Below, in pieces: positions 2,814 to 55,567 of a stretch of 64,000 nt of DNA. The DNA is from an uncultured Candidatus Saccharibacteria bacterium. GTDB lineage: Bacteria; Patescibacteriota; Doudnabacteria; UBA920. The stretch covers positions 804-64,803 of the forward strand of contig CAZFTX010000005.1 of NCBI GenBank assembly GCA_964521955.1, in the 5' to 3' direction. The notes under the pieces are model-generated. The model had not been told where the DNA came from, searched no databases, and worked only from the letters and a program-made list of their open reading frames with translations. A program made the position numbers and the translations under genes. The stretch's first letter is position 1. Each line of letters begins with the position of its first letter.

Positions 2814-2850
2814 TTAACCACTATAGCAAATACTGCTTGTTGCTGAAAGT

Positions 2851-38746: not shown

Positions 38747-38868
38747 GTCAACCCAGTAATACAACATTTGATATTTAATAAAAAAATAGTGTTATGAAAT
38801 ATTAAGCTTTGTATAAGCATGTGTTTTTGTATAAATATAAAATCAAATGTTGATATACTGGGTCAACC
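38747..38868. repeat. 122 bp palindromic (MITE-like) element with ~25-30 bp terminal inverted repeats, copy 1
   Basis: GTCAACCCAGTAATACAACATTTGAT...ATCAAATGTTGATATACTGGGTCAACC. It is 97% identical to 39797..39917 and lies ~130 bp upstream of the minus-strand PEP-CTERM gene start. Confidence 0.7.
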
Positions 38869-38965
38869 TTCTTATGTTAAAAGAAAAGAGCGAACCGTCA
38901 CGTGACTGCGGTTCGCTCTTTTTGCGTTGTTAGGCGCTCTTGTTACTCCCGCATGGAGCGGAAGT

Positions 38966-39658
38966 CTAGAGCTTGTTGTTGCGTCGACGTCGGTGGAGGA
39001 ACAGCAGGCCTCCGAGACCTGCGCCCATGAGTACGTACGTGCCGGGCTCCGGAACTTCGCCCGGACGTTCATCGCCAAACAGGTACTGAGTGAATGTCAC
39101 AGAGTTGAGCCTTGTTTGACCGTTGCTGCGTACGCGAAGAAGCGTTTGTTCCCATGCTCCGAAAGCGCCGACGTTGTCGCGTAGAAACGTTCCCGCCGCG
39201 TAAGTGTTGTCGTACCAGTGATCCACGGATCCGTCGCCGTGAAGCAGGGTTTCCACCGTATGTGGTGTTCCGGCAACGCGCGGAGTGAGGTCAAAGAACA
39301 CAAACGTTTCAATCGCCGGTGCGTTGCTGTAGCGTTCGTAGCCGAGCAGAGAAGCGCCGAACAAGGATCCGTTTTGTGTACGCGGGTTGAGACCGTTGCT
39401 CAAGTTCTGCTGGAACATGTCGATGTTGGCGTTGGGATTGTCTTCGTAGCTCACCGACGCATAGGTTGAGCCGCTGTTGATGAAGATGCCGACCTCGGTG
39501 TTGGAATTCTGGGTGATGGTGATTGTGCCGTCGCCGTTGTCGGTAAACGTGCCGTCGCCGTATGTGGTCCACGTAAGACCACCGAAGTCAATGGTCGCGG
39601 CGTTGGCCGAGAGGGCCGCAACGGTCGCGAGAATCAAGAGAACGAGAAATTGCTTCAT
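38966..39658 (-). CDS. PEP-CTERM domain secreted protein
   Basis: 230 aa; signal peptide, Gly/Thr/Asn-rich body, C-terminal EVPEPGTYVLMGAGLGGLLFLHRRRRNNKL; GGAGG RBS; GC-rich codons. Confidence 0.8.
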   Translation of the reverse strand: MKQFLVLLILATVAALSANAATIDFGGLTWTTYGDGTFTDNGDGTITITQNSNTEVGIFINSGSTYASVSYEDNPNANIDMFQQNLSNGLNPRTQNGSLFGASLLGYERYSNAPAIETFVFFDLTPRVAGTPHTVETLLHGDGSVDHWYDNTYAAGTFLRDNVGAFGAWEQTLLRVRSNGQTRLNSVTFTQYLFGDERPGEVPEPGTYVLMGAGLGGLLFLHRRRRNNKL

Positions 39659-39796
39659 GACACCTCCGTGATGTGTCGGTTAGCACTACGCCTATTTTAG
39701 CCTTGCCTAAAAAATCCAAAGCAAGACTTTTTGCCTAACTAGTTATTAGGCCTCCTTATATAACGACTTATTAGTTTATAGTATTTCGGGCATGGG

Positions 39797-39917
39797 GTCA
39801 ACCCAGTAATACAACATTTGATATTTAATAAAAAATAGCGTTGTGAAATATTAAGCTTTGTATAAGTATGTGTTTTTGTATAAATATAAAATCAAATGTT
39901 GATATACTGGGTCAACC
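39797..39917. repeat. 122 bp palindromic (MITE-like) element, copy 2
   Basis: Near-identical to 38747..38868; ~140 bp upstream of the start of the 38966..39658 gene. Confidence 0.7.
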
Positions 39918-40194
39918 TTGTTAGGTAAATAAAAAAAGCCCCACGCAAATCGACGATTTCGATATTGGTGGGTAACTTTTTCGTTTGGAACTCCTAAGGT
40001 TCCTCCTGGTTGTGTCGCGTGTGAGTTTGCTTCGCACCCAAGCTCGTCTTAACGACGAACGGGAATTAGCCCCAAAGGGGCCAGTGGCTTTACATTCAAC
40101 CCTTTTTTAAAAGGATCTCCTCTACACACAACGGTTGTGGTTGTAAGATGCGTTTTCGGCGGTGCTCGCCTTGCGCACCTCATGATCTTGTTCC

Positions 40195-41520
40195 TCAAGC
40201 CTGCGCGGCTCGGGTGTCAATCACTTGTTGCGCGGCCTCCGAAGGGGGCGTGCTTGCGATGAGCCAGACTCGGCCGTTGGGATTGCTTGAATAACGGATG
40301 TTCAAACCCCTCCAGCCAAGACTTTCCATGCTCCTCCGAAGATCTTGGGCCTGTTCCAAGCCTTGTTTGCCGGCGCCGATTTGGACTTCTGCCGCGCCAG
40401 TTGTTCGGTCAATGTTCGGTTCTCGGTCAATCCCTTGTGAAAGCAGAAACTCCCTGAACTTTCCAACGAGCTCGTTTGGGGAATTCGCTTCAATTGGGAT
40501 AACCTTGTTTATTCTGGAAGGCAGTTTCGCCTGTTGTGGTCGCTTGTTTTCCTTGGAGTGTGCCCAAAGGCAGTATCCGAGTATAACAAGCAGAAAGAAG
40601 CAAGCGCCGCCCACTATTGAGCCAACCAGAATGAGGTTGTTGGTGGGTTGTTTTGTTACCACTTTCGCTTCGCCCTTCGCGAGACCGTTGCTGTCCTTGG
40701 CCGGAGCTTCTTCACAGTCAGCCGATGCGGCTGACATGATGTCAAAGCTCATGGAACCGTTTGGACTATTTGGCCTTTGGAAGCAGGGCATTTTGCTTTG
40801 CGGAATGGGCAGGGGCCCACGCCGGACAGCAGTTTGCGCAGGCGGGGGAGGAAGGGCTTTCGCAACTTGGGGTTTTGCCTGTTTCTGAACTGGTTGTTCA
40901 ACCTTAGGCGTTACTTTGGTTGCTATTTGCTTTTTCTCTTTTGCCGCCGTCGGCACTTTTGCCACTCCTGCCGGTTTCGGGGTTGCTTTCACCGCGACCT
41001 TGGCCGGAGCCTTGGGCGCGAGTGGTTTCGGAGCTGTTGCGACAACAGCCTTGGGGGCTGGAGCGGATTTCTTCACGGGAGTCGGGACAGCGGCCTTGGC
41101 CACTGCCGGCGACTTTTTGGCTGGGGTTCTGGTTTGGAGTGCGGGCTTCTTCGTGCCAATTGGTTCGGGCACGGGAGTCATTGCAGCCACGCCACTGTTG
41201 ACGTCGCTGACCACGTACTTGCCGGTTGGCATGTAGCGCCAAACTTCGGCGCGACAATTGCCGACAAACGCAACCTCGCTTCCAACTTCCGCCTTCGGGA
41301 AGTTGACTCGGATGAGCTTTTGGTTTTCCGGCGTTACCGTGACAGTGAACACCAGCTTTTCAACTTCGCAAAAGGCTCCGCGGAACATGCGAGCGAAGTG
41401 GCTCGCAGTTTGTCCGGGTGCCAAAATCACTTCCTGTGGCAACTTAACTTTCTCTTCTTGGGCAAGCCCAAGAGAGGAGAGAGCTGCTGCAAGAAGCAAA
41501 AGCCGAGATGTGTTAAACAT
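40195..41520 (-). CDS. Pro/Ala/Lys-rich membrane protein (signal peptide, PAK low-complexity region, TM, C-terminal globular domain)
   Basis: 441 aa; MFNTSRLLLLAAALSSLGLA signal, ~120 aa of AP/AK/PK repeats, TM LILVGSIVGGACFFLLVILGYCLW, then a 110 aa C-terminal domain. GC-rich. Confidence 0.55.
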   Translation of the reverse strand: MFNTSRLLLLAAALSSLGLAQEEKVKLPQEVILAPGQTASHFARMFRGAFCEVEKLVFTVTVTPENQKLIRVNFPKAEVGSEVAFVGNCRAEVWRYMPTGKYVVSDVNSGVAAMTPVPEPIGTKKPALQTRTPAKKSPAVAKAAVPTPVKKSAPAPKAVVATAPKPLAPKAPAKVAVKATPKPAGVAKVPTAAKEKKQIATKVTPKVEQPVQKQAKPQVAKALPPPPAQTAVRRGPLPIPQSKMPCFQRPNSPNGSMSFDIMSAASADCEEAPAKDSNGLAKGEAKVVTKQPTNNLILVGSIVGGACFFLLVILGYCLWAHSKENKRPQQAKLPSRINKVIPIEANSPNELVGKFREFLLSQGIDREPNIDRTTGAAEVQIGAGKQGLEQAQDLRRSMESLGWRGLNIRYSSNPNGRVWLIASTPPSEAAQQVIDTRAAQA

Positions 41521-41842
41521 CTTTTTTGGCCTCCTCTTCAGTTGTGAATCTAACTAAACTTCAGACCAAAAACTTCTGGTCCTGAAAAAAATCTAACTAG
41601 GTAGTAGCTTGTTAGCTAGTAGCTTTTTAGATACCTATCAGCAAAAGAAGTTTTTTTGATTTTTAGAACAATTAGGTAAATTAGAACAATTAGAATAATT
41701 CAGTATTTTTTCTTTTTTGACTTTACACTTTAACATTTTCTTTGATTTTTGTCAATGTATATTTTGCAGATTCTAATCTAAAGCGGGACCAGCTCCGTTA
41801 GAGGTTGGTTATTTTAAAAATAACCGTAAGCTCTAAGCGGGG

Positions 41843-41971
41843 GTTGACCCAGTAGAGCTACATTGCAAATATGTTTTTGTTTTATTCAGTATAAATAAGA
41901 GCATTTTTTTATAAAACGTTTAATTAGGAATTCAATTGCAATGTGATTCTACTGGGTTGACAATTTCTCTC
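41843..41971. repeat. palindromic (MITE-like) element, variant copy 3 (GTTGACCCAGTAGAG...CTACTGGGTTGAC)
   Basis: Shares the CCCAGTA terminal core and a CAxCATTGxAA inner arm with copies 1/2. It lies ~175 bp upstream of the third PEP-CTERM gene. Confidence 0.55.
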
Positions 41972-42146
41972 TTATATATTACGATGTTTGGTGCTACAGG
42001 GGTCGATTTTTTGATCCCTGTTTGTACGTTGTGTGTACACACTACGGTAGTTGGACAGCACTGCGCTGTCACAACTTACCGTCAACCGCGGTTCTTTAGA
42101 CCCCACCTTGAAGAGGGTGGGACAAATCCACGGAGGATTGAGTACC

Positions 42147-42854
42147 ATGAAGTTTAAGAGGAAGAAGCCCCAGACCATTGTGTCATGGGGTAAAATGATG
42201 TTTGCGATCGCTCTGATTGCCATGTTGGCCGGCCTCACGGCCGCGCCGGCGAACGCGGCGGTGATTGGACCAGGTGGATCTGGAGTGGCGTCTGATTTCG
42301 GAGTCATTTCCGGCACCGTCTTGGTGGAAACTACTGTGCTCGGGGTCGTGGGTGTTCCCACGGCAACCTTTACCGGTGATTACGCATACTCTGTGATTGA
42401 CGAGGGTGGCGGGATTCTCGCGTTTCTGTACCAGTTCAGCAACTGGGCCAGTTCCGATGATCCGGTGCTTCGCACGACTCATAGCTCATTCACCGGGTTC
42501 GTTACCGACGTTGGCTACACCACAGTCGTACCGGTTGGTACCACGGTGTTCAGCGCCGGCGGCGTAGCCTCGACGGATGTCTCGCGCAGTGGCAGTGGCA
42601 GTGTGGTTCGGTATGACTATGATGCGGGTGTGGATCCGGGTACGTTTACCTACATCATGGCCATTCGTGTCACTGCTGATTACTGGTCGCGTGGTGGTTC
42701 ATTCACGGCTCAAGATGGAAGCGTGGGAGCCGTGACGGCAGCTAATCCCGAATCGGTTCCCGAGCCCGGCACGTACGCGCTCATGGGCGGCGGCCTGTTG
42801 GCCCTCGCTGCCCTGCGTCGGCGCAACAAGGGAGGTGACGACACCTCCAACTAG
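42147..42854 (+). CDS. PEP-CTERM domain secreted protein
   Basis: Start at MKFKRKKP (GGAGG RBS; the ORF-track 42051 start was rejected). Signal/TM, Gly/Ser/Thr/Val-rich body, C-terminal SVPEPGTYALMGGGLLALAALRRRNKGGDDTSN. Confidence 0.75.
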   Translation: MKFKRKKPQTIVSWGKMMFAIALIAMLAGLTAAPANAAVIGPGGSGVASDFGVISGTVLVETTVLGVVGVPTATFTGDYAYSVIDEGGGILAFLYQFSNWASSDDPVLRTTHSSFTGFVTDVGYTTVVPVGTTVFSAGGVASTDVSRSGSGSVVRYDYDAGVDPGTFTYIMAIRVTADYWSRGGSFTAQDGSVGAVTAANPESVPEPGTYALMGGGLLALAALRRRNKGGDDTSN

Positions 42855-43980: not shown

Positions 43981-45204
43981 ATGTCCCAACTCAAGTCTAA
44001 AATCGAAGCAGAGCTTCAAAAAAATACTGACGTTTCTATTATTTCTTTGGTTCAAGACTTGGTTGTTTACGCTCACGAAACCCGCGCTTCAGACATTCAC
44101 ATAGACCCGGTGGAAAAATTTGTCAGAGTTCGTTTAAGAGTTGATGGAGTTCTGTTGGAAAGTTTTAAGTTTCCAAAAAACATTCACTCTGAAGTTGTTA
44201 CCAGAATTAAAATTCTTTCCGGATTAAGGACAGACGAACATCAAGCTGCACAGGACGGACGTTTTCGTATAGACAAAGTTGAAGGGGAGAGGCCGCTGGA
44301 TGTTCGTGTTTCTATTACTCCCACTTACTTTGGAGAGAACGCAGTTTTAAGACTTTTGTCAGACAAAGAAGAAGGTCACACTTTAGACACATTGGGTTTT
44401 TCTAAAAGTAACCAGCAGAAGATTTTAAAAGCAATTAAGCGTCCGTTTGGAATGATACTAGCAACAGGTCCTACCGGCTCGGGTAAAACCACTACGCTTT
44501 ATACGCTTATACAAATGTTGAACAATCCGGAAGTAAACATTGTAACCATTGAAGACCCGGTAGAGTACGCAGTGGAAGGTGTTGAGCAAATTCAGGTGAA
44601 CCCCAGAACTGGTTTAACTTTTGCAAATGGCTTACGCTCCATACTCAGACAAGATCCGAACATAATTATGGTAGGGGAAATCCGCGACTCAGAAACTGCA
44701 GGCATAGCTATAAATGTGTCCTTGACCGGACACTTGCTCTTTTCCACTCTCCATACTAACGACCCGGCAACTACTTTGCCTAGACTACTAGATATGGGTA
44801 TAGAAGCTTATCTTGTGGCTTCAACTGTAAATTTGGCCATTGGTCAAAGACTGGTCAGGAAAATTTGCAGTTCCTGTAAAAAAGAAAAAGTTTTTACTTC
44901 GGCTGAAACCAAAAGTCTTTCCGAACATATCCCTTCAAGTGTTTTAAAAAAGTTTAAAAACTTTTACGAAGGCAAAGGCTGTGAAGCCTGTAATAACACC
45001 GGCTACAAAGGTAGAGTCGCTATACACGAAGTTTTAGAAATAGACGAAGCGGTTAAGGAAGCAATTTTAAAAAAATCTACAGCAACAGAAATTAAAGAAA
45101 TTGCCATGAAAAATGGAATGATTCCTATGGGTCAAGACGGACTCCTGAAAGCTGCTGCCGGAATAACCACCATACAAGAAGTTTTACGCGTTTCTCATGA
45201 ATAG
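43981..45204 (+). CDS. pilB: type IV pilus assembly ATPase, GspE/PilB family (short form)
   Basis: 407 aa; Walker A GPTGSGKTT, Asp box, His box and C-terminal CxxC...CxxC zinc motif (CSSCKK...CEACNNTG). Confidence 0.85.
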   Translation: MSQLKSKIEAELQKNTDVSIISLVQDLVVYAHETRASDIHIDPVEKFVRVRLRVDGVLLESFKFPKNIHSEVVTRIKILSGLRTDEHQAAQDGRFRIDKVEGERPLDVRVSITPTYFGENAVLRLLSDKEEGHTLDTLGFSKSNQQKILKAIKRPFGMILATGPTGSGKTTTLYTLIQMLNNPEVNIVTIEDPVEYAVEGVEQIQVNPRTGLTFANGLRSILRQDPNIIMVGEIRDSETAGIAINVSLTGHLLFSTLHTNDPATTLPRLLDMGIEAYLVASTVNLAIGQRLVRKICSSCKKEKVFTSAETKSLSEHIPSSVLKKFKNFYEGKGCEACNNTGYKGRVAIHEVLEIDEAVKEAILKKSTATEIKEIAMKNGMIPMGQDGLLKAAAGITTIQEVLRVSHE

Positions 45205-45252
45205 TGGTGAATTATTCTAAGTACCCTAATTGATCTAATTATTCTAAAAGGG

Positions 45253-45612
45253 ATGCAAGATGAAAAAAATACAAAATATGACTTAGAAGAAAGAACAGCA
45301 AAGTTTGGTGAAGAAATTATTAGATTTTGTGTTCAATTACCAAGAAATGAAGTTACTAAGCCATTAATAAATCAGTTAGTGAAGTGCGGAACAAGTGTTG
45401 GTGCAAACTATTCAGAGGCAGACGACGCAGAAAGTCCTAAAGATTTTAAGCACAAGATTGGGATATGTAAGAAAGAGTCTAGGGAATGTAAGCATTTTTT
45501 AAGAATGTTATCGGTAGCAACTCCGGAAAAGACCGAACTAATTAGAGTTTTATGGAACGAAGCAAAAGAGTTACATTTAATTTTCAACGCAATTTATAGA
45601 AAGATTAATTAA
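45253..45612 (+). CDS. four-helix-bundle protein (23S rRNA intervening-sequence protein family)
   Basis: 119 aa; LVKCGTSVGANYSEADDAESPKDFKHKIGICKKESRECKHFLRML matches the family signature. Confidence 0.7.
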   Translation: MQDEKNTKYDLEERTAKFGEEIIRFCVQLPRNEVTKPLINQLVKCGTSVGANYSEADDAESPKDFKHKIGICKKESRECKHFLRMLSVATPEKTELIRVLWNEAKELHLIFNAIYRKIN

Positions 45613-45665
45613 TTGGGATTTATTTAGGTTAATTAGAGTAATTAGAACAATTAGAATAATTCAGT

Positions 45666-46730
45666 ATGTCATTTTTCTCCCCAAGCTTTTCTACAAAAGA
45701 ACAAACGCTCTTTGCCAAACGACTTTCTTTTCTCATGCGTGCAGGTGTGCCAATTTTAGAAAGTTTAAATTTGCTGAAAAAGCAAATGCGCACGAAAAGT
45801 TCAGTAAAGATTTTTGAGTCCATAATTACAGACGTTTCCAACGGCAATTTTTTGTCTTCTGCACTCGCAAAGTTTAAAGGCGTGTTTGGGGAATTTGCGG
45901 TTAACATTATTAAAGTTGGGGAAGAGGGCGGAATTTTAAGCGAAAACTTACACTATTTAGCAGAAGAGTTAAAGAAAAAACAGGCTTTAAAGAAAAAAGT
46001 TATTTCCGCACTCATTTATCCGGTGTTTATAGTCGTTGCCACTTTAGGAATTGTTGGGGTACTGACCGTGTTCGTGTTTCCAAAAGTCATGCCAATTTTT
46101 TCCAGCATTAACGTGCCTTTGCCTTTAACCACCCGAGCTTTAATTGTTATTAGTCGTTTTCTTATTGCATACGGTTTTTGGGTACTCTTGGGTTTTATAC
46201 TTTTGGTCTTTGCTGTTTCTATAATTTTAAAACAAGTTAAGCCATTCCGCTTTAGGGTTCAACAACTTTTGTTAAGACTTCCAATTGTCGGGAAAATTTC
46301 ACGGGATTATTACTTAGCAAACTTTTGTAGAACTTTAGGACTACTTTTAAGAGGGGATGCCAGACTTTACGAAGCTATTTTAACCACAGCGAAAACAACA
46401 GAAAATTTGGTTTATAAAAATGAGTTTGTGGGAATTTCTAAAGCAGTAAACAAAGGTGAAAGGATTTCTGCATACATGGCTAGGCGCACGCAGTATTTTC
46501 CGGAAATTACCGGACACATGGTAGCAATTGGGGAGACGGCCGGCAATTTGAGTGAAACTTTTATGTATTTGGCGGAAATGTACGAAAATGAAGTGGATGA
46601 AACTACCAAGAACCTTTCCAGTTTAATAGAGCCGGTGTTAATGGTGTTTATGGGGCTCTTGGTTGGGTTTGTGGCTATTTCAATTATCACCCCAATTTAT
46701 TCTGTGACGCAGAAACTAACCCCTAAATAA
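45666..46730 (+). CDS. pilC: type IV pilus assembly platform protein, GspF/PilC family
   Basis: 354 aa (short form) with three TM segments and two GspF-like repeats. Confidence 0.8.
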   Translation: MSFFSPSFSTKEQTLFAKRLSFLMRAGVPILESLNLLKKQMRTKSSVKIFESIITDVSNGNFLSSALAKFKGVFGEFAVNIIKVGEEGGILSENLHYLAEELKKKQALKKKVISALIYPVFIVVATLGIVGVLTVFVFPKVMPIFSSINVPLPLTTRALIVISRFLIAYGFWVLLGFILLVFAVSIILKQVKPFRFRVQQLLLRLPIVGKISRDYYLANFCRTLGLLLRGDARLYEAILTTAKTTENLVYKNEFVGISKAVNKGERISAYMARRTQYFPEITGHMVAIGETAGNLSETFMYLAEMYENEVDETTKNLSSLIEPVLMVFMGLLVGFVAISIITPIYSVTQKLTPK

Positions 46731-46762
46731 TAAAAAATTGATCCCGAAATAACTGACCAAAA

Positions 46763-47206
46763 ATGATCAAAATTGACATGAATGACAAGAATGAAAAAAA
46801 CTATGGATTCACTTTAATGGAGATATTGGTGGTAATGGGAATTATGGTGGTGCTTTCTACTTTAGGACTTTTGGTGGGATTGGATTTTTACAAGAGCTAC
46901 GCTTTTAATTCCGAAAGAGACTTAGTGGTAAGCATGTTACAGAAAGCCAGAAACCAGTCATTGGCAAACATAAATCAGAAAGAACATGGGTTTAGAGTAG
47001 TAGGTAATAATTATGAAATTTATGAAGTTGGCGGTGGTGATGTACAGACTTTTCAAAAGCATCCAGGGATTAATTCTGCTGATGTCGATGTAAGATTTGA
47101 ACAGCTTTCAGGGGATTCGTATATTTTTTCAGGGAATATTGTTTTAGATGATGGGAAAAGGGCAGCGACTATTTCTGTAAACTCTGAGGGAAGAATTAAT
47201 TGGTAG
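46763..47206 (+). CDS. type IV pilin-like protein (prepilin-type N-terminal cleavage/methylation domain)
   Basis: Leader ...NEKNYG / FTLMEILVVMGIMVVL with Gly(-1), Phe(+1), Glu(+5). Confidence 0.8.
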   Translation: MIKIDMNDKNEKNYGFTLMEILVVMGIMVVLSTLGLLVGLDFYKSYAFNSERDLVVSMLQKARNQSLANINQKEHGFRVVGNNYEIYEVGGGDVQTFQKHPGINSADVDVRFEQLSGDSYIFSGNIVLDDGKRAATISVNSEGRINW

Positions 47207-47251
47207 AAAAAATTAACCTAATTATTCTAATTTCTAATTAACCTAAAATTT

Positions 47252-48712
47252 ATGAAAATAAAAAATTTGTTTAAAAGGTCGCAAGGAGGATATACCACTG
47301 CAGAAATGCTAATTGCTTTTTTCATTATGACCGTGGCTATTTCCGGAGTTAGTACTATTGCTTTTGGAAACCAGTCAGTTTCTGTGGACACTGAAAAAAA
47401 CAGTGAAGCTTTGCGTATTGCCCAAGCTGTAGCAGAAGACAAAAGAGCCATGGCAAAAACTAACTTCGACAGTTTACAAACTTCAGACTGCGACACTGCC
47501 GGGTATGAGTGTGAAGTTTTGGTTTCCAGTCCTCAGCAGAACTTAAAACAAATTACCACAACGGTTTCTTGGGTAGAAGGTAACAGGCCGCAAAGCGTGG
47601 TTTTAAAAAGCCGAGTGGCAAACTTAGAGGAAGAAGAAGCAACCGGCGGAACCGAAGGTGGTGGTAACAGAGAAAGTTCAGGGGGTGACGACGGAGGAGA
47701 TGATGGTACGGGAAGTGGTGGGGGTAGTGGAGGAAGTAATGGTTTTTGTCCAACGGTTAATAATATTTTCTCTCAAGACACTACAGCTAGTTTGGCTGGT
47801 AAAACTACCGGATTGGACGTTGTTAATAATTTAATATACCTAAGTTTAGATACGAGTGGAGATAATACTTTAAGTGATTTTGTTATTCTCGATTCAAATA
47901 ATTTAAATAAAATTGTAAAAATTTCAGAACTCAAAACTCAATCCGGAGGCTTAAATGCTATAGATATTGCAAATGGGTACGCGTATACTGTGGGGAAAAA
48001 GTTGGGAGCACAGTTAGAAATAATAAATGTTTCGAGTTCTACTAGTCCAAGTTTAGAAAGTTTTTTAGATTTATCATCCGCTGGGCTTAGTATATTTTAT
48101 AGGGACAATAAAGTTTATGCAGGTACCGAAAACAATCCCAGTGGCCCAGAGTTTTATGTAATAGATGTGACTGATTCCAGTTTGCCTTCGGTTTTAGGTA
48201 GTTTTGAAATTGGTGGGGGAGTTAATCAAATTGTGGTTCGGGGAAATACAGCCTATCTTGCAACTACTCACGGAGCTAAGGATATTGTAGTATTAGACGT
48301 TTCAAATCCTACCAGTATTTTAGAGACAAGAGTTTACAATAATTCCTATGCTGCAGCTGCACAGAGTTTGTATTTCTATGATAGTAAAATTTTTGCAGGT
48401 TCAAATCCTAACCTATTAGTCTTGGACCCAAGCACTAATCCAGTGAATTTAACTGCTTCAAATTCCATGCCTATGAATATTAATGATATTGTTATTTCTG
48501 GAAACTTAGGTTTTCTTGGAACAGATTTGGCAAATAAACGTTTTCAAATATGGGATATGAGTAATTTATCCGACATGAAATATTGCACAAGTTCAGATAA
48601 TATTAGTCCTTTGTTTAACGCTCCGGTTACAGGGATAATTTATCAAAACGGTTTGGCTTATGTTGCCATGTATAAAAATGGAATATCGGTTCGTGTTGTA
48701 AAGTTGAATTAA
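47252..48712 (+). CDS. pilin-like protein fused to Gly/Asp-rich linker and LVIVD-repeat beta-propeller-like domain
   Basis: 486 aa; prepilin-like N-terminus SQGG/YTTAEMLIAFFIM (Glu+5), then an EEEATGGTEGGGN...GSGGGSGGSNG linker. Repeated motifs follow: LEIINVSSSTSP, FYVIDVTDSSLP, DIVVLDVSNPTS, LLVLDPSTNPV, FQIWDMSNLSD. Confidence 0.55.
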   Translation: MKIKNLFKRSQGGYTTAEMLIAFFIMTVAISGVSTIAFGNQSVSVDTEKNSEALRIAQAVAEDKRAMAKTNFDSLQTSDCDTAGYECEVLVSSPQQNLKQITTTVSWVEGNRPQSVVLKSRVANLEEEEATGGTEGGGNRESSGGDDGGDDGTGSGGGSGGSNGFCPTVNNIFSQDTTASLAGKTTGLDVVNNLIYLSLDTSGDNTLSDFVILDSNNLNKIVKISELKTQSGGLNAIDIANGYAYTVGKKLGAQLEIINVSSSTSPSLESFLDLSSAGLSIFYRDNKVYAGTENNPSGPEFYVIDVTDSSLPSVLGSFEIGGGVNQIVVRGNTAYLATTHGAKDIVVLDVSNPTSILETRVYNNSYAAAAQSLYFYDSKIFAGSNPNLLVLDPSTNPVNLTASNSMPMNINDIVISGNLGFLGTDLANKRFQIWDMSNLSDMKYCTSSDNISPLFNAPVTGIIYQNGLAYVAMYKNGISVRVVKLN

Positions 48713-48713
48713 T

Positions 48714-49163
48714 ATGAAAAAAGCAAAGGACAGCAAACAAGAAGCATTCACTTTAATTGAAACTTTAATTTACATTGCTTTTTTTGCGGTGCTGGTTGGC
48801 AGTTTGCTTGGAATTACTTTTCAAACCATAGACAATTCTGCCAGACTTTCAAAGAAAATAACCATTCAGCAAGAAGCAAACTTTATTTTAAGAAAAATAG
48901 AATGGGCAATTAACAGCGGGGAAGTTGTATCTTCAGCCGGGGATGTTTTAACTGTTACTTTGTACGACGGTGGTGGAATTGTAGAGTTTAAGCGTGACGG
49001 AGACAATATGGTAATAGTTAGGGGAACAGAAATAAAAGAACTGAACAGTGAAAATGTTAAAGTGACAGACGTGTCTATACAAAATCCTACCGCAAGTGAA
49101 TTTAAAATTTCTTTAAACGTTGAAGGTGAAAATTTTCAATTAACTAAATTCCTTCGTAAGTAA
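48714..49163 (+). CDS. pseudopilin-like protein
   Basis: 149 aa; KQEAFTLIETLIYIAFFAVLVG N-terminal helix with Glu+5 (Ala at the -1 position instead of Gly). Confidence 0.5.
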   Translation: MKKAKDSKQEAFTLIETLIYIAFFAVLVGSLLGITFQTIDNSARLSKKITIQQEANFILRKIEWAINSGEVVSSAGDVLTVTLYDGGGIVEFKRDGDNMVIVRGTEIKELNSENVKVTDVSIQNPTASEFKISLNVEGENFQLTKFLRK

Positions 49164-49193
49164 CAAGTCTAAAGTAAAAAGTTAAAAGCTTGA

Positions 49194-49637
49194 ATGAAAT
49201 TTAAAAATTATAAAAATATTCTTTGCCCTAAACCCTTAGCACTTAGCGCTGGCTATATCGCCATCACTTCTGTAATGATTATTTCTCTATTACTTATAAC
49301 CATTACTGTGGCATTAAGTACAAGTAACTATTTTAGTCGGTTTAACATTTTAGAAAGTGAGTATAAAACCAGAAGTTTAGGTTTAGCAGAAGCATGTGTT
49401 GACCAAGCACTTTACAGGTTGGTACAAAAATTAGACACGCCAAATAATTTTAACGTAAACATAGGAAACAGCCAGTGTAAAATTGTTTCCATAAGTCCTG
49501 CAGGAGCAGCTAGAACCATAAAAACTCAAGGAGAGTTTCAGAAAAGCTTTTCAAATATTAAAGTGGTAGTAAATACTCCGGGGTATACAGTCAGTTCTTG
49601 GCAGGAATGTAAAACAGAAAATGACCCTTGCCAGTAA
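49194..49637 (+). CDS. membrane-anchored hypothetical protein, possible minor pilin
   Basis: 147 aa with N-terminal TM LALSAGYIAITSVMIISLLLITITVAL; placement between pilin genes. Confidence 0.35.
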   Translation: MKFKNYKNILCPKPLALSAGYIAITSVMIISLLLITITVALSTSNYFSRFNILESEYKTRSLGLAEACVDQALYRLVQKLDTPNNFNVNIGNSQCKIVSISPAGAARTIKTQGEFQKSFSNIKVVVNTPGYTVSSWQECKTENDPCQ

Positions 49638-49702
49638 GTACTGGTAGGTGTATAAATAATGAAAGTTAATTAACAATAATTTTAATAAGTAAAGGAAAAT
49701 AT

Positions 49703-50188
49703 ATGAATAAAGAGAAAGAACAGAGTGGATTTACACTCATAGAAATTTTGGTGGTTATTGGTATTATTGCCATTTTGGCAGTTATAGTGCTCATAGCCAT
49801 TAACCCAGGCAGACAGTTTGCTCAGTCTAGAGACACTCAAAGGACTAGTAATGTGAATGCTTTACTAAATGCTATTGGTCAACGTATGGCAGATAATAAA
49901 GGTGTGTTTGAAGGAAGTTTTTTTGATGGGACTAGTACAACAACTTGTCCTATTATTACCACAGGAGCTGATTTATCTATTTTGAGCGGTGGAACTGCTG
50001 GTAGTGGAGAGGTAAATCTTTCCTGTCTTGTGCCAACATATATTCCAGCTTTGCCAACTGATCCTAAGCATACAAGTAGTAATGGTAATGATACTTTGTA
50101 TGACATTTTTGTTAACTCTTCAACAAAAAGAACAACTGTAAAAGCTCCATTAGCAGAAATTAATAAACCAATAGAAATCGAGCGCTAG
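49703..50188 (+). CDS. type IV pilin (major pilin candidate)
   Basis: 161 aa; MNKEKEQSG/FTLIEILVVIGIIAILAVIVLIAINP class III signal with Glu+5. Confidence 0.85.
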   Translation: MNKEKEQSGFTLIEILVVIGIIAILAVIVLIAINPGRQFAQSRDTQRTSNVNALLNAIGQRMADNKGVFEGSFFDGTSTTTCPIITTGADLSILSGGTAGSGEVNLSCLVPTYIPALPTDPKHTSSNGNDTLYDIFVNSSTKRTTVKAPLAEINKPIEIER

Positions 50189-50202
50189 TATTTTATTTTT
50201 TA

Positions 50203-50238
50203 AACCCCGCTTTGGAAATTCCAAAGCGGGGTTTTTGT
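50203..50238 (+). terminator. intrinsic terminator after major pilin
   Basis: AACCCCGCUUUGG-AAAUU-CCAAAGCGGGGUU followed by UUUGUU. Confidence 0.6.
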
Positions 50239-50253
50239 TATGCTAAAACAGGC

Positions 50254-50282
50254 TTGATTTTCAAATTTTGGCATTATATAAT
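50254..50282 (+). promoter_or_regulatory. sigma70-like promoter TTGATT-17-TATAAT for PEP-CTERM gene
   Basis: Hexamers with 17 nt spacing, ~45 nt upstream of the AAGGAGG RBS. Confidence 0.45.
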
Positions 50283-50324
50283 AGGTAGTCGCAGCTAGAA
50301 GTACGCTAGCGACCACAAGGAGGA

Positions 50325-50993
50325 ATGCGCATGGTTTATTTGCGCTTTCGTGTAGTTTTGCTCGGAGCTCTTCTGGGCATCTTGCCAATTTCTCAGGCCT
50401 TCGGAGCCACGTTGACGTACGATTCTCTCACGGGAAGCACGGAAACGATTGGAACTTGGGGAGCACAAGCAACTGAGAAGTATGGTCAGACGACTACTGT
50501 ACCAGTCACACACACGCTTCTGACATCGTTTGCTTTTTCAATGAATTTCAACGGCGACAGCGCCGCGAGTGCAAACCTTCAGGTGCATGTGTACGGCTGG
50601 GACGGCAGCGCGCCAACAGGGGCGGCCCTTTGGTCCAGTGGCGTGTTGAACGCTTCCGGCGCCGGGTTCATTGACCAGTCTTTGAACATCGGTCTGAATT
50701 TGGTGGGTGGCCAGAACATTGTCTTGTACGTTGAGGCTCTTTCTGGTGACATTGCCGTATTCAAACGGCCGGGAATTTCACAACCGCTCATTGGGGTCGA
50801 CGTTTTTCCCGGAGGGTTTGTATTCCAGAATGGCATTGAGCCGTGGGTTCAAGATTTCATGGGTACTGACACCGACCTGGGCGTCATTCTCACATGGGAT
50901 CAAACGGAGGGCGGCGGCGGGGAAGTTCCTGAACCTTCTACGGTCGCTCTTGTCGGCGCTGGTGTTGCGGCGTTGTTGTTTCGCCGGCGCTAA
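50325..50993 (+). CDS. PEP-CTERM domain secreted protein embedded in pilus locus
   Basis: 222 aa (start may be the second ATG at 50331); signal peptide, then a C-terminal GGGGEVPEPSTVALVGAGVAALLFRRR; roughly 55% GC. Confidence 0.8.
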   Translation: MRMVYLRFRVVLLGALLGILPISQAFGATLTYDSLTGSTETIGTWGAQATEKYGQTTTVPVTHTLLTSFAFSMNFNGDSAASANLQVHVYGWDGSAPTGAALWSSGVLNASGAGFIDQSLNIGLNLVGGQNIVLYVEALSGDIAVFKRPGISQPLIGVDVFPGGFVFQNGIEPWVQDFMGTDTDLGVILTWDQTEGGGGEVPEPSTVALVGAGVAALLFRRR

Positions 50994-51227
50994 CGGTAAG
51001 CTCGCCACTTCGTGGCATCGTGGTCCGGGACCTGTACTCTTTAGGGGGTATGGGTTCCGGGCTGTTTTTTTAAACACAATATCAACAATGCGGAAATTTT
51101 CAATATTTATTCTCTTATTTAAGCCACTTTTTATTTGAAATTTTGTGTAGAATTTAAGTATTTTGTTTGCTAAACTTAAGGAAGTAAAAAATACTGTTTA
51201 GAAATAAAACTAAATATAAAAATATAT

Positions 51228-52361
51228 ATGAAAGTTAAAGTAAAGGTTGTTACCAACAATATTAATAGTAATAAAAAGTTTTTGAAAAAAAATTTGCTTT
51301 ATAAAGCAACAGCGTTTTTATGTATAGTTACTTTGGTTTTTTCTTTAATGTCTTCTAAAGACAAAGTTGTTGCAGCTGACTATCCTACTGCTACTTTGAT
51401 TGTGAAGAAAATTGTTGAAAACAATAATGGCGGTACCAAAGTTTCCTCTGACTTTACTATGTATGTAATTGGTTTGTCCGGAGTTCCTGGACCTGTAGCA
51501 ACACCTGACACTTATTCAACATCTTTTCCTGGTGACGCTTTTGGAACGCCAATCCTTTTAGGAGTAGGGAACTATCAAGTCACAGAAACTGTTTTGCCGG
51601 GTTATGCTGTAACTTACTCTGACGAATGTAGGAGTTCTACAGGCGGAATTCTAGAAGAAAACGTTGAAAGAACTTGTATAGTTACCAACTCAGACATTCC
51701 TGCAAAATTAAACGTAGTAGTGCAGGTGTTAAACGATAACGGTGGAAGTAAAGTGCCAGGTGACTTTAATGTTGTTGTAACTGGCGGTAATGCCAACCCA
51801 AGAAATTTTCCCGGAGATGAAAGCGGTACAGAAGTAGTCATGCACTCCGGAGTATATTCTGTAGACGTAGATCCTGACAGTAATTACGACATTACTTATT
51901 CTCCTGAATGTGCGGACAGTTTAGCTTTAGCTGAAAGTGTGACTTGTACTGTGAATATAAACGACATTGAACAAACAGGTGGTGGAGGTACTGGTGGTGA
52001 TGGGGAAGACGAAGAAGAAACACCCCCTCCTGGTGGTGGCGGTGGAAATTCGAGCGGTGGTGGCGCAGGTGGCCCAACTCCAACAGGTCCAGGATCTTCG
52101 GGAGGTGGCGGAACTTCTTCCGGCGGCAGCGGAATTCCAACCCCACCAACTCAGCCTAGTGACGGTGAAGTTTTAGGAGTTTCTACTACCAATGTCCCAA
52201 GTATTTCCATGCCCACAGACGGTGGTATACAGCCCGAGGGACAAGTATTAGGAGCTTCAACTGAATTGCCAAGAACCGGTACAAATGCTATGAGTGTTGT
52301 TATTTCCTTACTTGCTGGACTTTTGGTTTTTGTTCCCAAAATGAAGTTAAAGTTCAAGTAA
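51228..52361 (+). CDS. LPXTG-type cell-wall-anchor protein with two tandem beta-sandwich (prealbumin/Cna-B-like) domains
   Basis: 377 aa; N-terminal TM/signal; repeats ATLIVKKIVENNNGGTKVSSDFTMYV and AKLNVVVQVLNDNGGSKVPGDFNVVV; Gly/Ser/Pro-rich stalk. The C-terminus is LPRTG followed by a hydrophobic stretch and KMKLKFK. Confidence 0.75.
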   Translation: MKVKVKVVTNNINSNKKFLKKNLLYKATAFLCIVTLVFSLMSSKDKVVAADYPTATLIVKKIVENNNGGTKVSSDFTMYVIGLSGVPGPVATPDTYSTSFPGDAFGTPILLGVGNYQVTETVLPGYAVTYSDECRSSTGGILEENVERTCIVTNSDIPAKLNVVVQVLNDNGGSKVPGDFNVVVTGGNANPRNFPGDESGTEVVMHSGVYSVDVDPDSNYDITYSPECADSLALAESVTCTVNINDIEQTGGGGTGGDGEDEEETPPPGGGGGNSSGGGAGGPTPTGPGSSGGGGTSSGGSGIPTPPTQPSDGEVLGVSTTNVPSISMPTDGGIQPEGQVLGASTELPRTGTNAMSVVISLLAGLLVFVPKMKLKFK

Positions 52362-52416
52362 TTTTAAAAATTCCGGGTCGCCAGTTTAGGCACTCGGAAT
52401 TTTTGTTTTTATCAAA

Positions 52417-53001
52417 ATGAATAAGTTTAAAAAACCATTATTAGCAATTTTAGTTTTTACTATGGTTTTTATTGCGCTTAACTTTTCTTTTTTTAAGAAC
52501 AAATTTAACTTTACTTTTGAAGGTAGAAAAAGCATATACAAATCCCCGGCAGTTATACCCGTGATAAAAAAAGTTACGCCGAATTTTTTAACGATTGAAA
52601 CTTTAAACATAAAAGCCCCTATAGTTTATGTGGGAGAAAATAAAGAAGAAGTTTTTCAAACTGCCTTGCAAACCGGTGTAGTGCATTTTCCAGGGACTGC
52701 AAAACCCGGAGAATATGGAAATGTTTACATACTAGGACATAGTTCAGACTATGCTTGGGCTAAAGGGGAGTTTAAAACCGTTTTTGCAAGTTTACCTGAG
52801 ATTCAAAAAGGTGTGGAAATTACTGTGAGTGATTCTGAAGGCAACCCTTTTACTTACACAGTTACAGGCACTAAAATTGTTGCCCCGGAGGAGCTTTCGG
52901 TTTTAGACCAAGACTTTAAAAAGAAAACTTTAACTTTGCAAACTTCTTACCCCCTAGGCACTGCTTTAAAACGTTTTATAGTAACTGCCGAATTGAAATA
53001 A
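52417..53001 (+). CDS. sortase-family protein with Ser in place of the catalytic Cys
   Basis: 194 aa; N-terminal TM; VYILGHSS (His motif); KKTLTLQTSYP aligns with sortase QLTLITCDDY but has TCT (Ser) where TGT (Cys) is expected; KRFIVTAEL carries the conserved Arg. Confidence 0.65.
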   Translation: MNKFKKPLLAILVFTMVFIALNFSFFKNKFNFTFEGRKSIYKSPAVIPVIKKVTPNFLTIETLNIKAPIVYVGENKEEVFQTALQTGVVHFPGTAKPGEYGNVYILGHSSDYAWAKGEFKTVFASLPEIQKGVEITVSDSEGNPFTYTVTGTKIVAPEELSVLDQDFKKKTLTLQTSYPLGTALKRFIVTAELK

Positions 53002-53081
53002 CTTGACTTAAGTACGCGGGTTTATGGTAAAATAAGTCCATAAAGTATTCCCTTAAGAAATCAAAAACTAAAATTAAATAT

Positions 53082-53573
53082 ATGACAAAACTTTCTCGGA
53101 GGTCTTTAGACCCTAGTCAGTTGGGCTACTTAGTTAATAACTTGTGGTCGGCTTTTACTTTAATGAGCACCAAGGAAGACATTCGTCTTTTGTTTAAAGA
53201 TGTATTAACTCAGACTGAAATAAGAATGATTGCTAAACGTTTAGAAATAGTGAGGAGACTTTTAAAACAAGAGTCTTATGAGAATATTCAGAAAGAATTA
53301 AAAGTAACTTCCGGTACTATTAATGCAATAGGCAATATTTTAAAATTGAGAGGCGATGGTTTTCGTAAGGTATGTTTAAAGTTGGACGGTTTGGAAGAAA
53401 AATACATTAAACAACAAAGAGAAATAACAAAAAATCTTGAGAATCCATTTAGGAAGAAAACTCAAAGAAAAACATTATTGGGAGAAGTAATTAAGGCAGG
53501 TATTAGTGCCTTAGATAAAAAGATTATTCAGACTCAAAAGCATAATTCTGCCAAAAAAGTATTGCCTTCCTAA
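53082..53573 (+). CDS. TrpR/YerC-YecD family helix-turn-helix protein
   Basis: 163 aa; LFKDVLTQTEIRMIAKRLEIVRRLLKQESYENIQKELKVTSGTINAIGNILK matches the YerC/Trp-repressor-like fold; Lys-rich C-terminal tail. Confidence 0.6.
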   Translation: MTKLSRRSLDPSQLGYLVNNLWSAFTLMSTKEDIRLLFKDVLTQTEIRMIAKRLEIVRRLLKQESYENIQKELKVTSGTINAIGNILKLRGDGFRKVCLKLDGLEEKYIKQQREITKNLENPFRKKTQRKTLLGEVIKAGISALDKKIIQTQKHNSAKKVLPS

Positions 53574-53575
53574 CC

Positions 53576-53609
53576 ACTATGATACTGTCCAGTATCATAG
53601 TGGTTTAAA
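53576..53609. repeat. 34 bp perfect palindrome AACCACTATGATACTGTCCAGTATCATAGTGGTT, copy 2
   Basis: Identical to 43180..43213. It sits between the yerC-like stop and the start of the next pilin-like gene. Confidence 0.6.
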
Positions 53610-53610
53610 T

Positions 53611-55026
53611 TTGGGGATTTTTATGAAGAAGGTAAGAATTAAAGTAGAAAGTTACTTAGGGGGTTATGTGGCTATGGAAATGATTTTAGCCTTGTTTGTT
53701 TTTGCTCTCTTGGTTCCGGCTGCAGTGGTTTTAATTTTTTCAAACCAATTTGCAATTATAGACACTGAAAACAACCATACAAGTTTAATTTTAGCTAAAG
53801 AAGTTTTTGAAGAAACTCAAGCAGTTGGTAGGAGTAATTTTAGTTCACTCTCACCTTTAGCGGAGATTCCCGAAGGTGATTTTTTCAAAGACAATTATTT
53901 AGAAGAAATTTCAGACTATGCCTTTTTTTCTGACAGTCGTTCCTGGCATAAAAACTATACTTTAAAAAAAGTTGAACTGCCAACCGCATTTATAGACTGG
54001 AAAAACGCTCTAGGAAAAGACAGTTGTGCTTTAAGTTTTTCCGACAGTTGGGGATCACCGGTTTTAAAAGGAAGTATGAATTTGGGTTTAGGAAACGAAG
54101 CTTTAGATTTAGATGTTCATAATAAAAAAGTTTATATTACCGCTAATTTCTCTCCGGTCTCACAGAGAGATTTTTTTATAGTTGAGGTTACAGATCAAAA
54201 TACTCCTTTTCTTATTTCTTCGCTTCATTCTGGACCTGGGTTATCTGCTGTGCATGTTGCAGGTGATTATGCTTATGTTGCAAATGCAACCCTGACCAAT
54301 CAGTTTCAAGTAATAAGTATTGCAGATAACAATAATCCTATTTTAGTTAAGACTTACAAAATACCGGGGGTTACAGGCACCGGTGGAGCTGGTGTTGGTA
54401 AAAGTATTTTTTATTTAAATAAAAAAATTTATATTGGACTTACAAAAGCCACCGGCCCAGAGTTTCATATTCTTGATGTTGCAATTCCAAACTCGCCGGT
54501 GTTGCTTGGTGCTTTTGAAACTAACACAGTTGTTAGCAGTATTTTTGTAAAAGATGGACTCGCTTATCTGGCAACTGGGGAAGGGGATCAGTTTAGAATT
54601 TTGGACGTAAGTAATCCGAGTAATATTTTTGAACTTGGTAGTTTAGGTTGGCTTAGCCAGTCAGGCCAAAGTGTTACTGTTTTAGGTAATCAAGTAGTTT
54701 TTGGAAGAGCAGGAGGACTTTCTAACTCAGGGCAGCATGAACTTTTTTTGTTAGATGTTAAAAACAAAACATTACCCACATCAGTTTTTTCTTCAGATTT
54801 AAATTTTAGTATTAGGGATATTTTTTGGAGAGATGGATTGGTGTTTTTAGCGACTAACAAAGCTGGGGCGGAATTTCAAGTGTTTGAAAAGTTGGGTAAT
54901 GTATTGGTTTTTAAATCAGGCTTGGATTTAGGCAGTCCGGCTACAGCTTTAGACTGTGAAGATGAAAGCATATTTGTGCTTTCAGAAAATGGTAAATTGA
55001 GCATACTTAATCCGGGTTCTTATTGA
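53611..55026 (+). CDS. pilin-like protein fused to LVIVD-repeat beta-propeller-like domain (paralog of 47252..48712)
   Basis: 471 aa; prepilin-like SYLGG/YVAMEMILALFVFALLV (Glu+5); repeats FFIVEVTDQNTP, FQVISIADNNNP, FHILDVAIPNSP, FRILDVSNPSN, LFLLDVKNKTLP. Confidence 0.55.
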   Translation: MGIFMKKVRIKVESYLGGYVAMEMILALFVFALLVPAAVVLIFSNQFAIIDTENNHTSLILAKEVFEETQAVGRSNFSSLSPLAEIPEGDFFKDNYLEEISDYAFFSDSRSWHKNYTLKKVELPTAFIDWKNALGKDSCALSFSDSWGSPVLKGSMNLGLGNEALDLDVHNKKVYITANFSPVSQRDFFIVEVTDQNTPFLISSLHSGPGLSAVHVAGDYAYVANATLTNQFQVISIADNNNPILVKTYKIPGVTGTGGAGVGKSIFYLNKKIYIGLTKATGPEFHILDVAIPNSPVLLGAFETNTVVSSIFVKDGLAYLATGEGDQFRILDVSNPSNIFELGSLGWLSQSGQSVTVLGNQVVFGRAGGLSNSGQHELFLLDVKNKTLPTSVFSSDLNFSIRDIFWRDGLVFLATNKAGAEFQVFEKLGNVLVFKSGLDLGSPATALDCEDESIFVLSENGKLSILNPGSY

Positions 55027-55045
55027 TTTGTGATATTATATAGGT

Positions 55046-55567
55046 ATGAATAAATTTTTAGACCAAATGCCGGCAAATATGAAACCGGCAAATTTTCAAG
55101 GAAATCCGGAAGAGCAAAAACAACTAAATAAAAAACTTAAATCCATGCAGAAAAAGAACAGGCCTTGGGGTAAGTTTTTAGCTTTTTTGTTAATTTTGGG
55201 TGGTGTAATTTACGCAACACACTATTTTGAAATTTGGGCTATTTATGAAGCAAAAATTGAAGTTGTATCAAAAGAGCAGAAGGTGGACGGTGGGTTTGAT
55301 GGGCAAGTTTTAGACTTTGGAAGAATTTCAGAAAATGAGATGAGTCAGGTGAATTTATCTTTTGAAAATAAGTCTAAATATGTACAAGCAGTTTATGTTT
55401 ATAAAACAGGAAAAATTGCTCCTCATGTAAAGTTTAGCCAGGAGCAGTTTTTAGTCGCTAGAAACGAGGTTAAAACAATTTTTGCTTATACTTTAGCTGG
55501 TAGTTATGATCTTTACGGTAAGTATACCGGTAGGATAATAGTTTTCAGAATTCCAAAACTTTGGTAG
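55046..55567 (+). CDS. membrane-anchored hypothetical protein
   Basis: 173 aa; Lys-rich N-terminus, one TM, C-terminal beta-rich domain; last gene of the pilus cluster. Confidence 0.4.
   Translation: MNKFLDQMPANMKPANFQGNPEEQKQLNKKLKSMQKKNRPWGKFLAFLLILGGVIYATHYFEIWAIYEAKIEVVSKEQKVDGGFDGQVLDFGRISENEMSQVNLSFENKSKYVQAVYVYKTGKIAPHVKFSQEQFLVARNEVKTIFAYTLAGSYDLYGKYTGRIIVFRIPKLW

Follow-up and report, generated by a model that had tools for sequence, protein, structure and literature searches.

Genes of the type IV filament operon

The stretch of DNA analysed here, hereafter the window, comprises 64,000 nucleotides of contig CAZFTX010000005.1 from an uncultured Candidatus Saccharibacteria bacterium, and its positions 43981–50188 on the forward strand form a single type IV filament operon. 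Mapping of the open reading frames (ORFs) and scans with hidden Markov models (HMMs) give the gene order as a PilB-like ATPase, a four-helix-bundle protein, a PilC platform protein, four minor pilins and a major pilin (Table 1), all of them located where an earlier reading made from the letters alone (the sequence-only reading) had placed them. The second minor pilin, LVIVD1, and a paralog encoded further downstream, LVIVD2, carry a large domain of LVIVD repeats behind a pilin-like N-terminus and are the main subject of this report. The region probably encodes the type IV filament (pilus) of an ultrasmall bacterium of the Patescibacteria, or Candidate Phyla Radiation (CPR), with a tip complex that includes a modular minor pilin bearing a seven-bladed LVIVD propeller.

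The sequence-only reading had drawn the pilus cluster over the whole of 43981–55567 and counted in it five proteins with class III prepilin-type N-termini. Both figures have to be revised. Six pilin-like proteins are encoded, five of them contiguously and the sixth at 53611–55026, and the interval 50189–53610, which separates the pilus operon from the LVIVD2 gene, is unrelated to the pilus: it contains genes for a PEP-CTERM protein, an LPRTG protein, a sortase homolog and a TrpR-like protein. Likewise, the ORF at 55046–55567 (173 amino acids, aa), formerly included in the cluster, has no counterpart at the 17 related loci whose ORFs were compared with the window proteins and belongs to no Pfam or NCBIfam family.

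The ATPase reaches 504.7 bits with the GspE model TIGR02533 and 496.8 bits with the PilB model TIGR02538, both under the equivalog cut-offs, and its orthologs come first in the operon at 15 of the 17 related loci. No homolog of the four-helix-bundle protein was found at any of these 17 loci, in which no other pilus gene separates pilB from pilC, and its gene is probably an insertion between pilB and pilC that stands outside the machine. By position and by weak HMM matches, minor pilin 1 appears to be GspH/FimU-like, with orthologs in the equivalent position at 15 loci; minor pilin 3, whose N-terminus matches N_methyl and TIGR02532, also has orthologs at 15 loci. Minor pilin 4 matched no Pfam or NCBIfam family, and its 15 orthologs with a readable N-terminus all keep the motif G[YF][IV][AML]L..S without Glu5, the absence of Glu5 being a feature of GspK. 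At two related loci (L013, 12016–13992; L014, 12003–14021) this Glu5-less, GspK/PilX-like minor pilin has 658–672 aa instead of about 140 aa; there, a second putative tip subunit is modular too, with a large extra module. The major pilin is the best-conserved pilin across loci, with operon-linked orthologs at E = 1e-24 to 1e-46.

Table 1. Features of the filament operon and its surroundings in the window; a slash marks the predicted cleavage site.
Feature	Positions	Strand	Evidence and remarks
PEP-CTERM gene, 70 aa	38405–38617	-	above TIGR02595 cut-off; in the same GC-rich stretch
PEP-CTERM gene	38966–39658	-	above TIGR02595 cut-off
PEP-CTERM gene	42051–42854	+	above TIGR02595 cut-off
PilB/GspE-type assembly ATPase, 407 aa	43981–45204	+	PF00437 T2SSE, E = 4.9e-119; short form without N-terminal domains
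Four-helix-bundle protein (23S rRNA intervening-sequence protein family)	45253–45612	+	PF05635, E = 2.1e-12; TIGR02436, 69.2 bits
PilC/GspF platform protein, 354 aa	45666–46730	+	two PF00482 T2SSF domains, E = 1.4e-50; TIGR02120, 275 bits
Minor pilin 1, 147 aa	46763–47206	+	leader NYG/FTLME; PF07963, 23.9 bits (above gathering score); TIGR02532; GspH, E = 5.8e-5
Modular pilin LVIVD1, 486 aa	47252–48712	+	PF08309, 26.3 bits; second minor pilin
Minor pilin 3, 149 aa, GspJ/PilW position	48714–49163	+	leader QEA/FTLIE; weak matches to N_methyl, ComGE, ComGF, GspI and GspJ
Minor pilin 4, 147 aa, GspK/PilX-like	49194–49637	+	pilin-like N-terminus without Glu5 (SAG/YIAIT)
Probable major pilin, 161 aa	49703–50188	+	leader QSG/FTLIEILVVIGIIAILA; GFTLIE N-terminus; PF07963, 31.5 bits; TIGR02532
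Intrinsic terminator	50202–50234	+	stem of 15 pairs (8 GC) and T run; strong; closes the pilus operon 3' of the major pilin
PEP-CTERM gene	50325–50993	+	above TIGR02595 cut-off
LPRTG surface protein	51228–52361	+	SpaA_2 prealbumin-like domains, Gly-rich spacer, C-terminal LPRTG, hydrophobic stretch and basic tail
Sortase homolog without cysteine	52417–53001	+	PF04203, E = 4.4e-25; TIGR01076 above cut-off
Modular pilin LVIVD2, 467 aa from ATG 53623	53623–55026	+	PF08309, 40.7 bits; 3.4 kb downstream

Domains and fold of LVIVD1 and LVIVD2

Both proteins exceed the gathering score of the LVIVD family (PF08309; 20.2 bits) and are full-length paralogs with 27% identity (E = 5e-33), the alignment beginning at the GGY..E motif and including the N-terminal module. 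LVIVD1 is identical to the protein P0121 and occurs in an independent assembly too. The LVIVD2 gene had been given a start at 53611, the TTG of the mechanical ORF (471 aa); the product on record has 467 aa from ATG 53623, which is most likely the true start, and the residue numbers used here for LVIVD2 follow the 471-aa version.

LVIVD1 is composed of a leader (residues 1–12, reading SQG/GYTTAE at the cleavage site, with Glu5), a pilin module (residues 13–130; 47288–47641), a disordered tether (residues 131–165; 47642–47746) that is the Gly/Asp/Ser linker described by the sequence-only reading and has a predicted local distance difference test (pLDDT) below 50, and a seven-bladed LVIVD propeller (residues ~166–485; 47747–48709). 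In LVIVD2 the leader ends in YLG/GYVAME (Glu5 = E23), the pilin module spans residues 17–128, and a short conserved junction with Cys139 leads to a seven-bladed propeller (residues 146–469; 54046–55017) that holds Cys449. Confident AlphaFold models, built on alignments of 63 and 54 sequences, reach a pLDDT of 87.5 and a predicted template modelling score (pTM) of 0.82 for LVIVD1 (helix 16–70, strands 78–123, low confidence at 143–162, then 27 strands) and 89.2 and 0.79 for LVIVD2 (helix 17–75, strands 91–128, then 28 strands forming seven blades). In both models a 55–59-residue N-terminal helix is followed by a three- to four-stranded antiparallel sheet, with pLDDT of about 80–90 in these segments, and this combination is modelled as a pilin fold. 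The propeller-like character claimed for the C-terminal domains is borne out, since the 27–28 strands of each arrange into seven four-stranded blades closed on themselves, with pLDDT mostly above 90. In these two-module models, LVIVD1 and LVIVD2 each join a pilin module, a linker and a module that is not pilus-specific, which is how modular pilins are defined.

The closest folds found by Foldseek in the Protein Data Bank (PDB) are only generic seven- or eight-bladed propellers (beta-TrCP, BamB, designer propellers and, for LVIVD1, seven-bladed WD40 propellers), with E of about 1e-10, 10–14% identity and TM-scores of 0.6–0.7 on the target. A profile search of the PDB sequences returned no significant match; LST8 (E = 9e-4), YncE (0.005) and the PilA helix (0.35) scored best.

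At the N-terminus, both proteins show a short basic leader, a Gly, a hydrophobic stretch and Glu5 (RSQG/GYTTAEMLIAFFIM in LVIVD1, SYLG/GYVAMEMILALFVF in LVIVD2). In 63 full-length proteins of the family, the position just ahead of the predicted cleavage site is occupied by Gly 55 times and by Ala 5 times, and Glu stands at mature position 5 in 62 of them. The family leader motif is present but diverged, with Y, Q, G or H instead of F at position 1; PF07963 is matched by 9 of 25 family N-terminal modules at E ≤ 1 (best 8e-6), and a profile of the N-terminal module aligns, weakly (E = 0.097), from the first mature residue of Myxococcus xanthus PilA, while assigning by itself no GspH, I, J or K class. 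Judged by motif, the N-termini of LVIVD1 and LVIVD2 are predicted prepilin leaders, as the sequence-only reading had it. Plain transmembrane anchors were considered and rejected in view of the pilin fold and of the conserved Gly-1 and Glu5, which an ordinary anchor would not conserve.

The two paralogs differ in the way the propeller is attached. The long tether of about 35 disordered Gly/Asp/Ser residues is confined to the LVIVD1 subclade, and elsewhere in the family the modules are joined by a short junction of about 29–31 residues with a conserved GGDTC...GDWxNP motif. Cys139 of this junction and Cys449 of the last blade are both present in 34 sequences, both absent in 29 and never split, from which we infer a disulfide that would staple the junction to blade 7. 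The LVIVD2 junction is probably rigid and disulfide-stapled.

Family, operon slot and proposed role

LVIVD2 has 148 database homologs, about 60 of them full-length (450–520 aa), all from metagenomes or from metagenome-assembled genomes of Patescibacteria; nearly all LVIVD pilin homologs carry a precomputed PF08309 match, and in some sources they go by PulG, ComGC or 'prepilin-type', one member being named 'competence protein ComGC'. In a profile search over 1.84 billion cluster representatives (50% identity clusters), the best 150 matches all had E < 1e-128 and about 105 of them were single-stretch, full-length matches of 440–540 aa, which puts the family at no fewer than about a hundred 50%-identity clusters. 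Furthermore, when one genome per species was scanned with a query built on 12 closer family sequences, all 16 full-length matches belonged to Patescibacteria (labelled Saccharibacteria, Doudnabacteria or Paceibacterota), and matches in other phyla and in archaea spanned the propeller only. As a full-length protein, the pilin–LVIVD fusion was found only in Patescibacteria. Larger pilin-led proteins of 900–2000 aa were also seen (P0145, 1998 aa; P0160, 1266 aa; P0192, 1023 aa; P0209, 939 aa), in which a complete pilin and propeller unit comes first and is followed by more propellers or other domains, and giant proteins of 2000–6000 aa made of many LVIVD propellers score very high with the family profile.

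The order PilB, PilC, pilin, LVIVD pilin, pilin, Glu5-less pilin and major pilin is found at 11 of the 17 related loci, and an LVIVD pilin shares an operon with PilB and PilC at 14 of them as well as in the window. Two loci (L006 and L015) hold both LVIVD paralogs, as the window does. At three others (L003–L005) the LVIVD pilin is located 3' of the major pilin and the second slot is without one. As the LVIVD pilin is either in the second slot or displaced from it, genomes with a single LVIVD pilin have exactly four minor pilins, this one included. This gene order parallels gspH-I-J-K and fimU-pilV-pilW-pilX, because there are four minor pilins and the Glu5-less one comes fourth; the weak GspH matches of the first are a further likeness, and the displacement of the LVIVD pilin at three loci is a difference. 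Judging from gene order, the LVIVD pilin appears to occupy the GspI/PilV slot.

The pilin–LVIVD architecture is already known and therefore less new than the sequence-only reading had assumed. Indeed, Dataset S1 of a 2021 survey of modular pilins lists IPR012902–IPR013211 architectures with 1 to 13 repeats in 8+8+7+4+1+1+1 = 30 proteins (Raynaud et al. 2021, PMC8179133), IPR013211 being the LVIVD repeat. The survey, which describes the Streptococcus sanguinis modular pilins PilB, with a vWA module, and PilC, with a lectin module, and which argues for a tip location of bulky modular pilins, calls the LVIVD motif 'of unknown function' and contains no analysis of its fold, operon context or family (PMC8179133). 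The present analysis contributes a fold for these proteins, a conserved slot in the operon, the confinement of the fusion to Patescibacteria, the family's size and a pair of paralogs, one tethered and the other presumably stapled; it establishes no new principle. Among Creative Commons (CC)-licensed PMC papers and bioRxiv preprints, no paper on LVIVD pilins and no experimental study of one was found.

The nearest precedent is PilX2 of the T4P-2 pilus of TM7x (Nanosynbacter lyticus, Saccharibacteria), a minor pilin and proposed tip adhesin that bears a heptabladed propeller and the deletion of which lowers host binding from 10.6% to 4.6% with pili kept (PMC11623550). TM7x is the sole tested case of a propeller-bearing pilin that contributes to host binding. 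As for PilX2, the propeller-bearing pilin of the window is encoded among minor pilins beside the major pilin. It is set apart from PilX2, by the description of the latter, in that PilX2 has RCC1 repeats whereas LVIVD repeats are found here, and no RCC1 family was matched at E ≤ 1 in either LVIVD pilin. Moreover, PilX2 has no predicted PilD signal peptide whereas the LVIVD family keeps Gly-1 and Glu5, and in TM7x the pilin locus stands apart from pilB2/pilC2 whereas here all these genes share one operon. A second parallel is the PilY1/PilC tip adhesin of Pseudomonas, Neisseria and Myxococcus, which also combines a seven-bladed propeller, a location at the tip, four core minor pilins and an operon of fimU-pilV-pilW-pilX type. 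PilY1, however, is not a pilin and docks non-covalently on minor pilins, whereas the propeller here is covalently fused to one. The PilY1 family PF05567 was unmatched at E ≤ 1 in both LVIVD pilins and PilY1 was absent from the top 50 Foldseek matches; the LVIVD pilins may act like PilY1, yet they stand outside its family (PF05567/IPR008707).

By analogy with these systems, we propose that the LVIVD pilins are tip-displayed adhesins for host or surface binding, with a probability of roughly 0.6. PilB would power assembly on the PilC platform, and the four minor pilins (46763, the LVIVD pilin, 48714 and 49194) would prime it and stay at the tip, with the K-like 49194 as the topmost subunit because it is without Glu5, and with the major pilin 49703 polymerising below them. 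The propeller, of about 35 kDa, would be too bulky for the filament body and would for that reason be exposed at the tip, its loop-rich face binding a ligand on a host cell or surface. The two versions would be interchangeable, LVIVD1 presenting its propeller on the flexible tether and LVIVD2 on the short junction, and the two paralogs likely give two binding specificities or two reaches.

The distribution of variability in the propeller accords with such a role. Entropy and indels of the family, mapped on the LVIVD2 strands, show that the strands and the DVSNPxxP turns are conserved. The insertions and the entropy maxima are located in two classes of loops, those that follow the first and those that follow the third strand of each repeat unit; by blade topology, both classes share one face of the propeller, as would suit a recognition surface. 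Such diversification suits varied partners better than a uniform ligand such as DNA, which bears on the idea that the propeller is the DNA receptor of a competence-type pilus, the filament scavenging nucleic acid for a genome unable to make nucleotides. This idea draws on the short-form ATPase, which matches ComGA at 239 bits, on PilC, which matches ComGB at 144 bits, on weak ComGE, ComGD or ComGF matches of several pilins, on the naming of one family member as ComGC by its source, and on a marginal match of the family profile to YncE-family propellers (E = 0.005), the YncE of Escherichia coli binding single-stranded DNA. The ComGA and ComGB scores are, however, under the cut-offs and well below those for GspE/PilB and GspF, the YncE match is insignificant, and the scan of window ORFs turned up no comEA, comEC or dprA; a DNA receptor thus seems unlikely.

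The propeller also has a conserved chemical feature: an acidic or amide residue precedes the FxIxD strand in each blade (D187, Q231, the invariant E284, Q327, E377 and E421), and these residues could form a ring near the central channel that would be a cation or ligand site or merely structural. Together with the presence of the propeller phosphotriesterase 5hrm among the fold and sequence matches and with the peptidase modules of some modular pilins in the 2021 survey (PMC8179133), this ring could speak for an enzyme delivered by the pilus, such as a hydrolase of host envelope polymers. We hold this to be very unlikely, as the sequence match to 5hrm is insignificant (E = 0.039), 5hrm lies outside the best fold matches, the conserved residues belong to the repeat consensus and may be structural, and no catalytic motif was identified in the propeller.

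A further possibility is that LVIVD1 and LVIVD2 are not filament subunits, but pilin-anchored surface proteins held in the membrane or part of a short pseudopilus stub, the propeller acting at the cell surface. No retraction ATPase or alignment proteins occur among the window ORFs scanned, the ATPase scores equally well as GspE, the type II secretion system enzyme, and as PilB, and TM7x lacking pilX2 is still piliated, so that such a protein is dispensable for extrusion (PMC11623550). Set against this are the location of the gene among the minor pilins beside the major pilin at most loci and the almost invariant Gly-1 and Glu5, a conservation to be expected only of a helix that undergoes processing and is then packed into a filament. 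We find this possibility quite improbable.

Several observations weigh against the proposed tip adhesin. As the sequence-only reading had stated, no member of the PilD, PilT or PilM/N/O families was found in the window (ORFs of at least 110 aa scanned), nor was PilD found in the fetched flanks, which leaves processing and retraction putative for this genome; a regular-expression search for the prepilin peptidase motif GxGD[VI]K likewise gave zero matches in any frame of the window and in loci L001–L019. In TM7x, PilD is reported in locus one (PMC11623550). Of the two HMM families put forward in the sequence-only reading, PF08309 stood above its gathering score in both large proteins but N_methyl (PF07963) did not: the N_methyl score of LVIVD1 is 12.3 bits, below the gathering score of 21.2, and LVIVD2 gives no match at all. 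The pilin module has weak best matches (ComGE, E = 6e-4; PilA helix, E = 0.097), which do not assign it to GspI/PilV, and the I-position of the LVIVD pilin rests on gene order, the HMM support for any minor-pilin class being weak. No ligand can be read from the models because no solved structure specifically resembles the LVIVD propeller, and the variable-loop face was assigned from strand order and blade topology and not from coordinates.

To our knowledge, every cultivated member of the Patescibacteria lives attached to another microbe, and little is established about the way in which hosts are chosen and held. In this context, the LVIVD pilin, with its conserved operon slot, represents a concrete, sequence-defined adhesin candidate for many uncultured lineages. 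We put forward more tentatively, as a possibility that we favour less than its opposite, that it determines host recognition in a large, mostly environmental branch of Patescibacteria, covalently combining the 'PilY1 job' of a propeller adhesin with a core minor pilin that holds the I/PilV slot of the priming complex. If so, a genome that encodes both a tethered and a rigid paralog could build pili with alternative tips for two hosts or ligands, and the variable propeller face would predict the host range of uncultured episymbionts straight from sequence. The soluble domain of LVIVD2 (residues ~146–469) is clearly delimited and could be produced for ligand screens, and its variable loop face could be compared between genomes.

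Neighbouring surface-protein genes

In the sortase homolog encoded between the pilus operon and the LVIVD2 gene, the canonical TLxTC motif reads TLQTS. Its best 120 homologs (45–99% identity; called sortase A by their sources) have Ser at this motif position in 117 cases and are Cys-free in 80, and they keep the catalytic His (xFGHS) in 113 and the Arg in 110. Further homologs are encoded at L005 (3917–4522), L006 (323–919, reverse strand) and L015 (8015–8629 and 9092–9997). From these sequences, the proteins look like a large clade of serine-nucleophile sortases of Patescibacteria. The genes adjoining the sortase homolog in the window, in L006 (987–2606, reverse strand) and in L015 (6689–7975 and 8715–9026) encode proteins that carry LPRTG in 4/4 cases, and the LPRTG protein directly upstream in the window is likely the substrate of the putative Ser-sortase. 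A search of the same literature gave nothing relevant on serine sortases in Patescibacteria. This clade and the GC-rich PEP-CTERM genes described below, with their common promoter and operator region, may perhaps be more novel than the LVIVD pilins.

The genome is otherwise AT-rich and Patescibacteria-like; the four PEP-CTERM genes lie in GC-rich stretches, and the three larger ones have a GC content at third codon positions of 0.57–0.69 versus 0.22–0.40 in their neighbours. No exosortase was found in the window. In the related genome L006, a GC-rich PEP-CTERM gene (2834–3478) stands in the equivalent position beside the pilus operon. Assembly chimeras were considered as the origin of these GC-rich inserts and rejected, the join being reproduced in an independent assembly (L001) and the same gene arrangement being found in a related genome.

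Three PEP-CTERM genes have in common an upstream region of about 155 nucleotides (38734–38887, 39784–39936 and 41842–41962), of which two copies are 90–93% identical and the third is diverged. It consists of GGTTGACCCAGTA, about 90 nucleotides of AT-rich sequence, TACTGGGTTGACA-N17-TAGAAT and a ribosome-binding site, that is, a near-consensus sigma-70 promoter (TTGACA-N17-TAGAAT) combined with paired palindromic ACCCAGTA/TACTGGGT half-sites, which are probably an operator. The region has no match in Rfam, which recognised only two tRNAs in the window, and is absent from 82 fetched loci.

Between the PEP-CTERM genes, positions 40195–41520 of the reverse strand encode a Pro/Ala/Lys-rich protein of 441 aa (GC 0.55) with a signal peptide and one central transmembrane segment, which belongs to no Pfam or NCBIfam family. 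Elsewhere in the window, a 639-aa protein of surface type (17522–19441, forward strand) contains Big_2 and He_PIG Ig-like domains, He_PIG (PF05345) being among the pilin-fused modules of the 2021 survey (PMC8179133).

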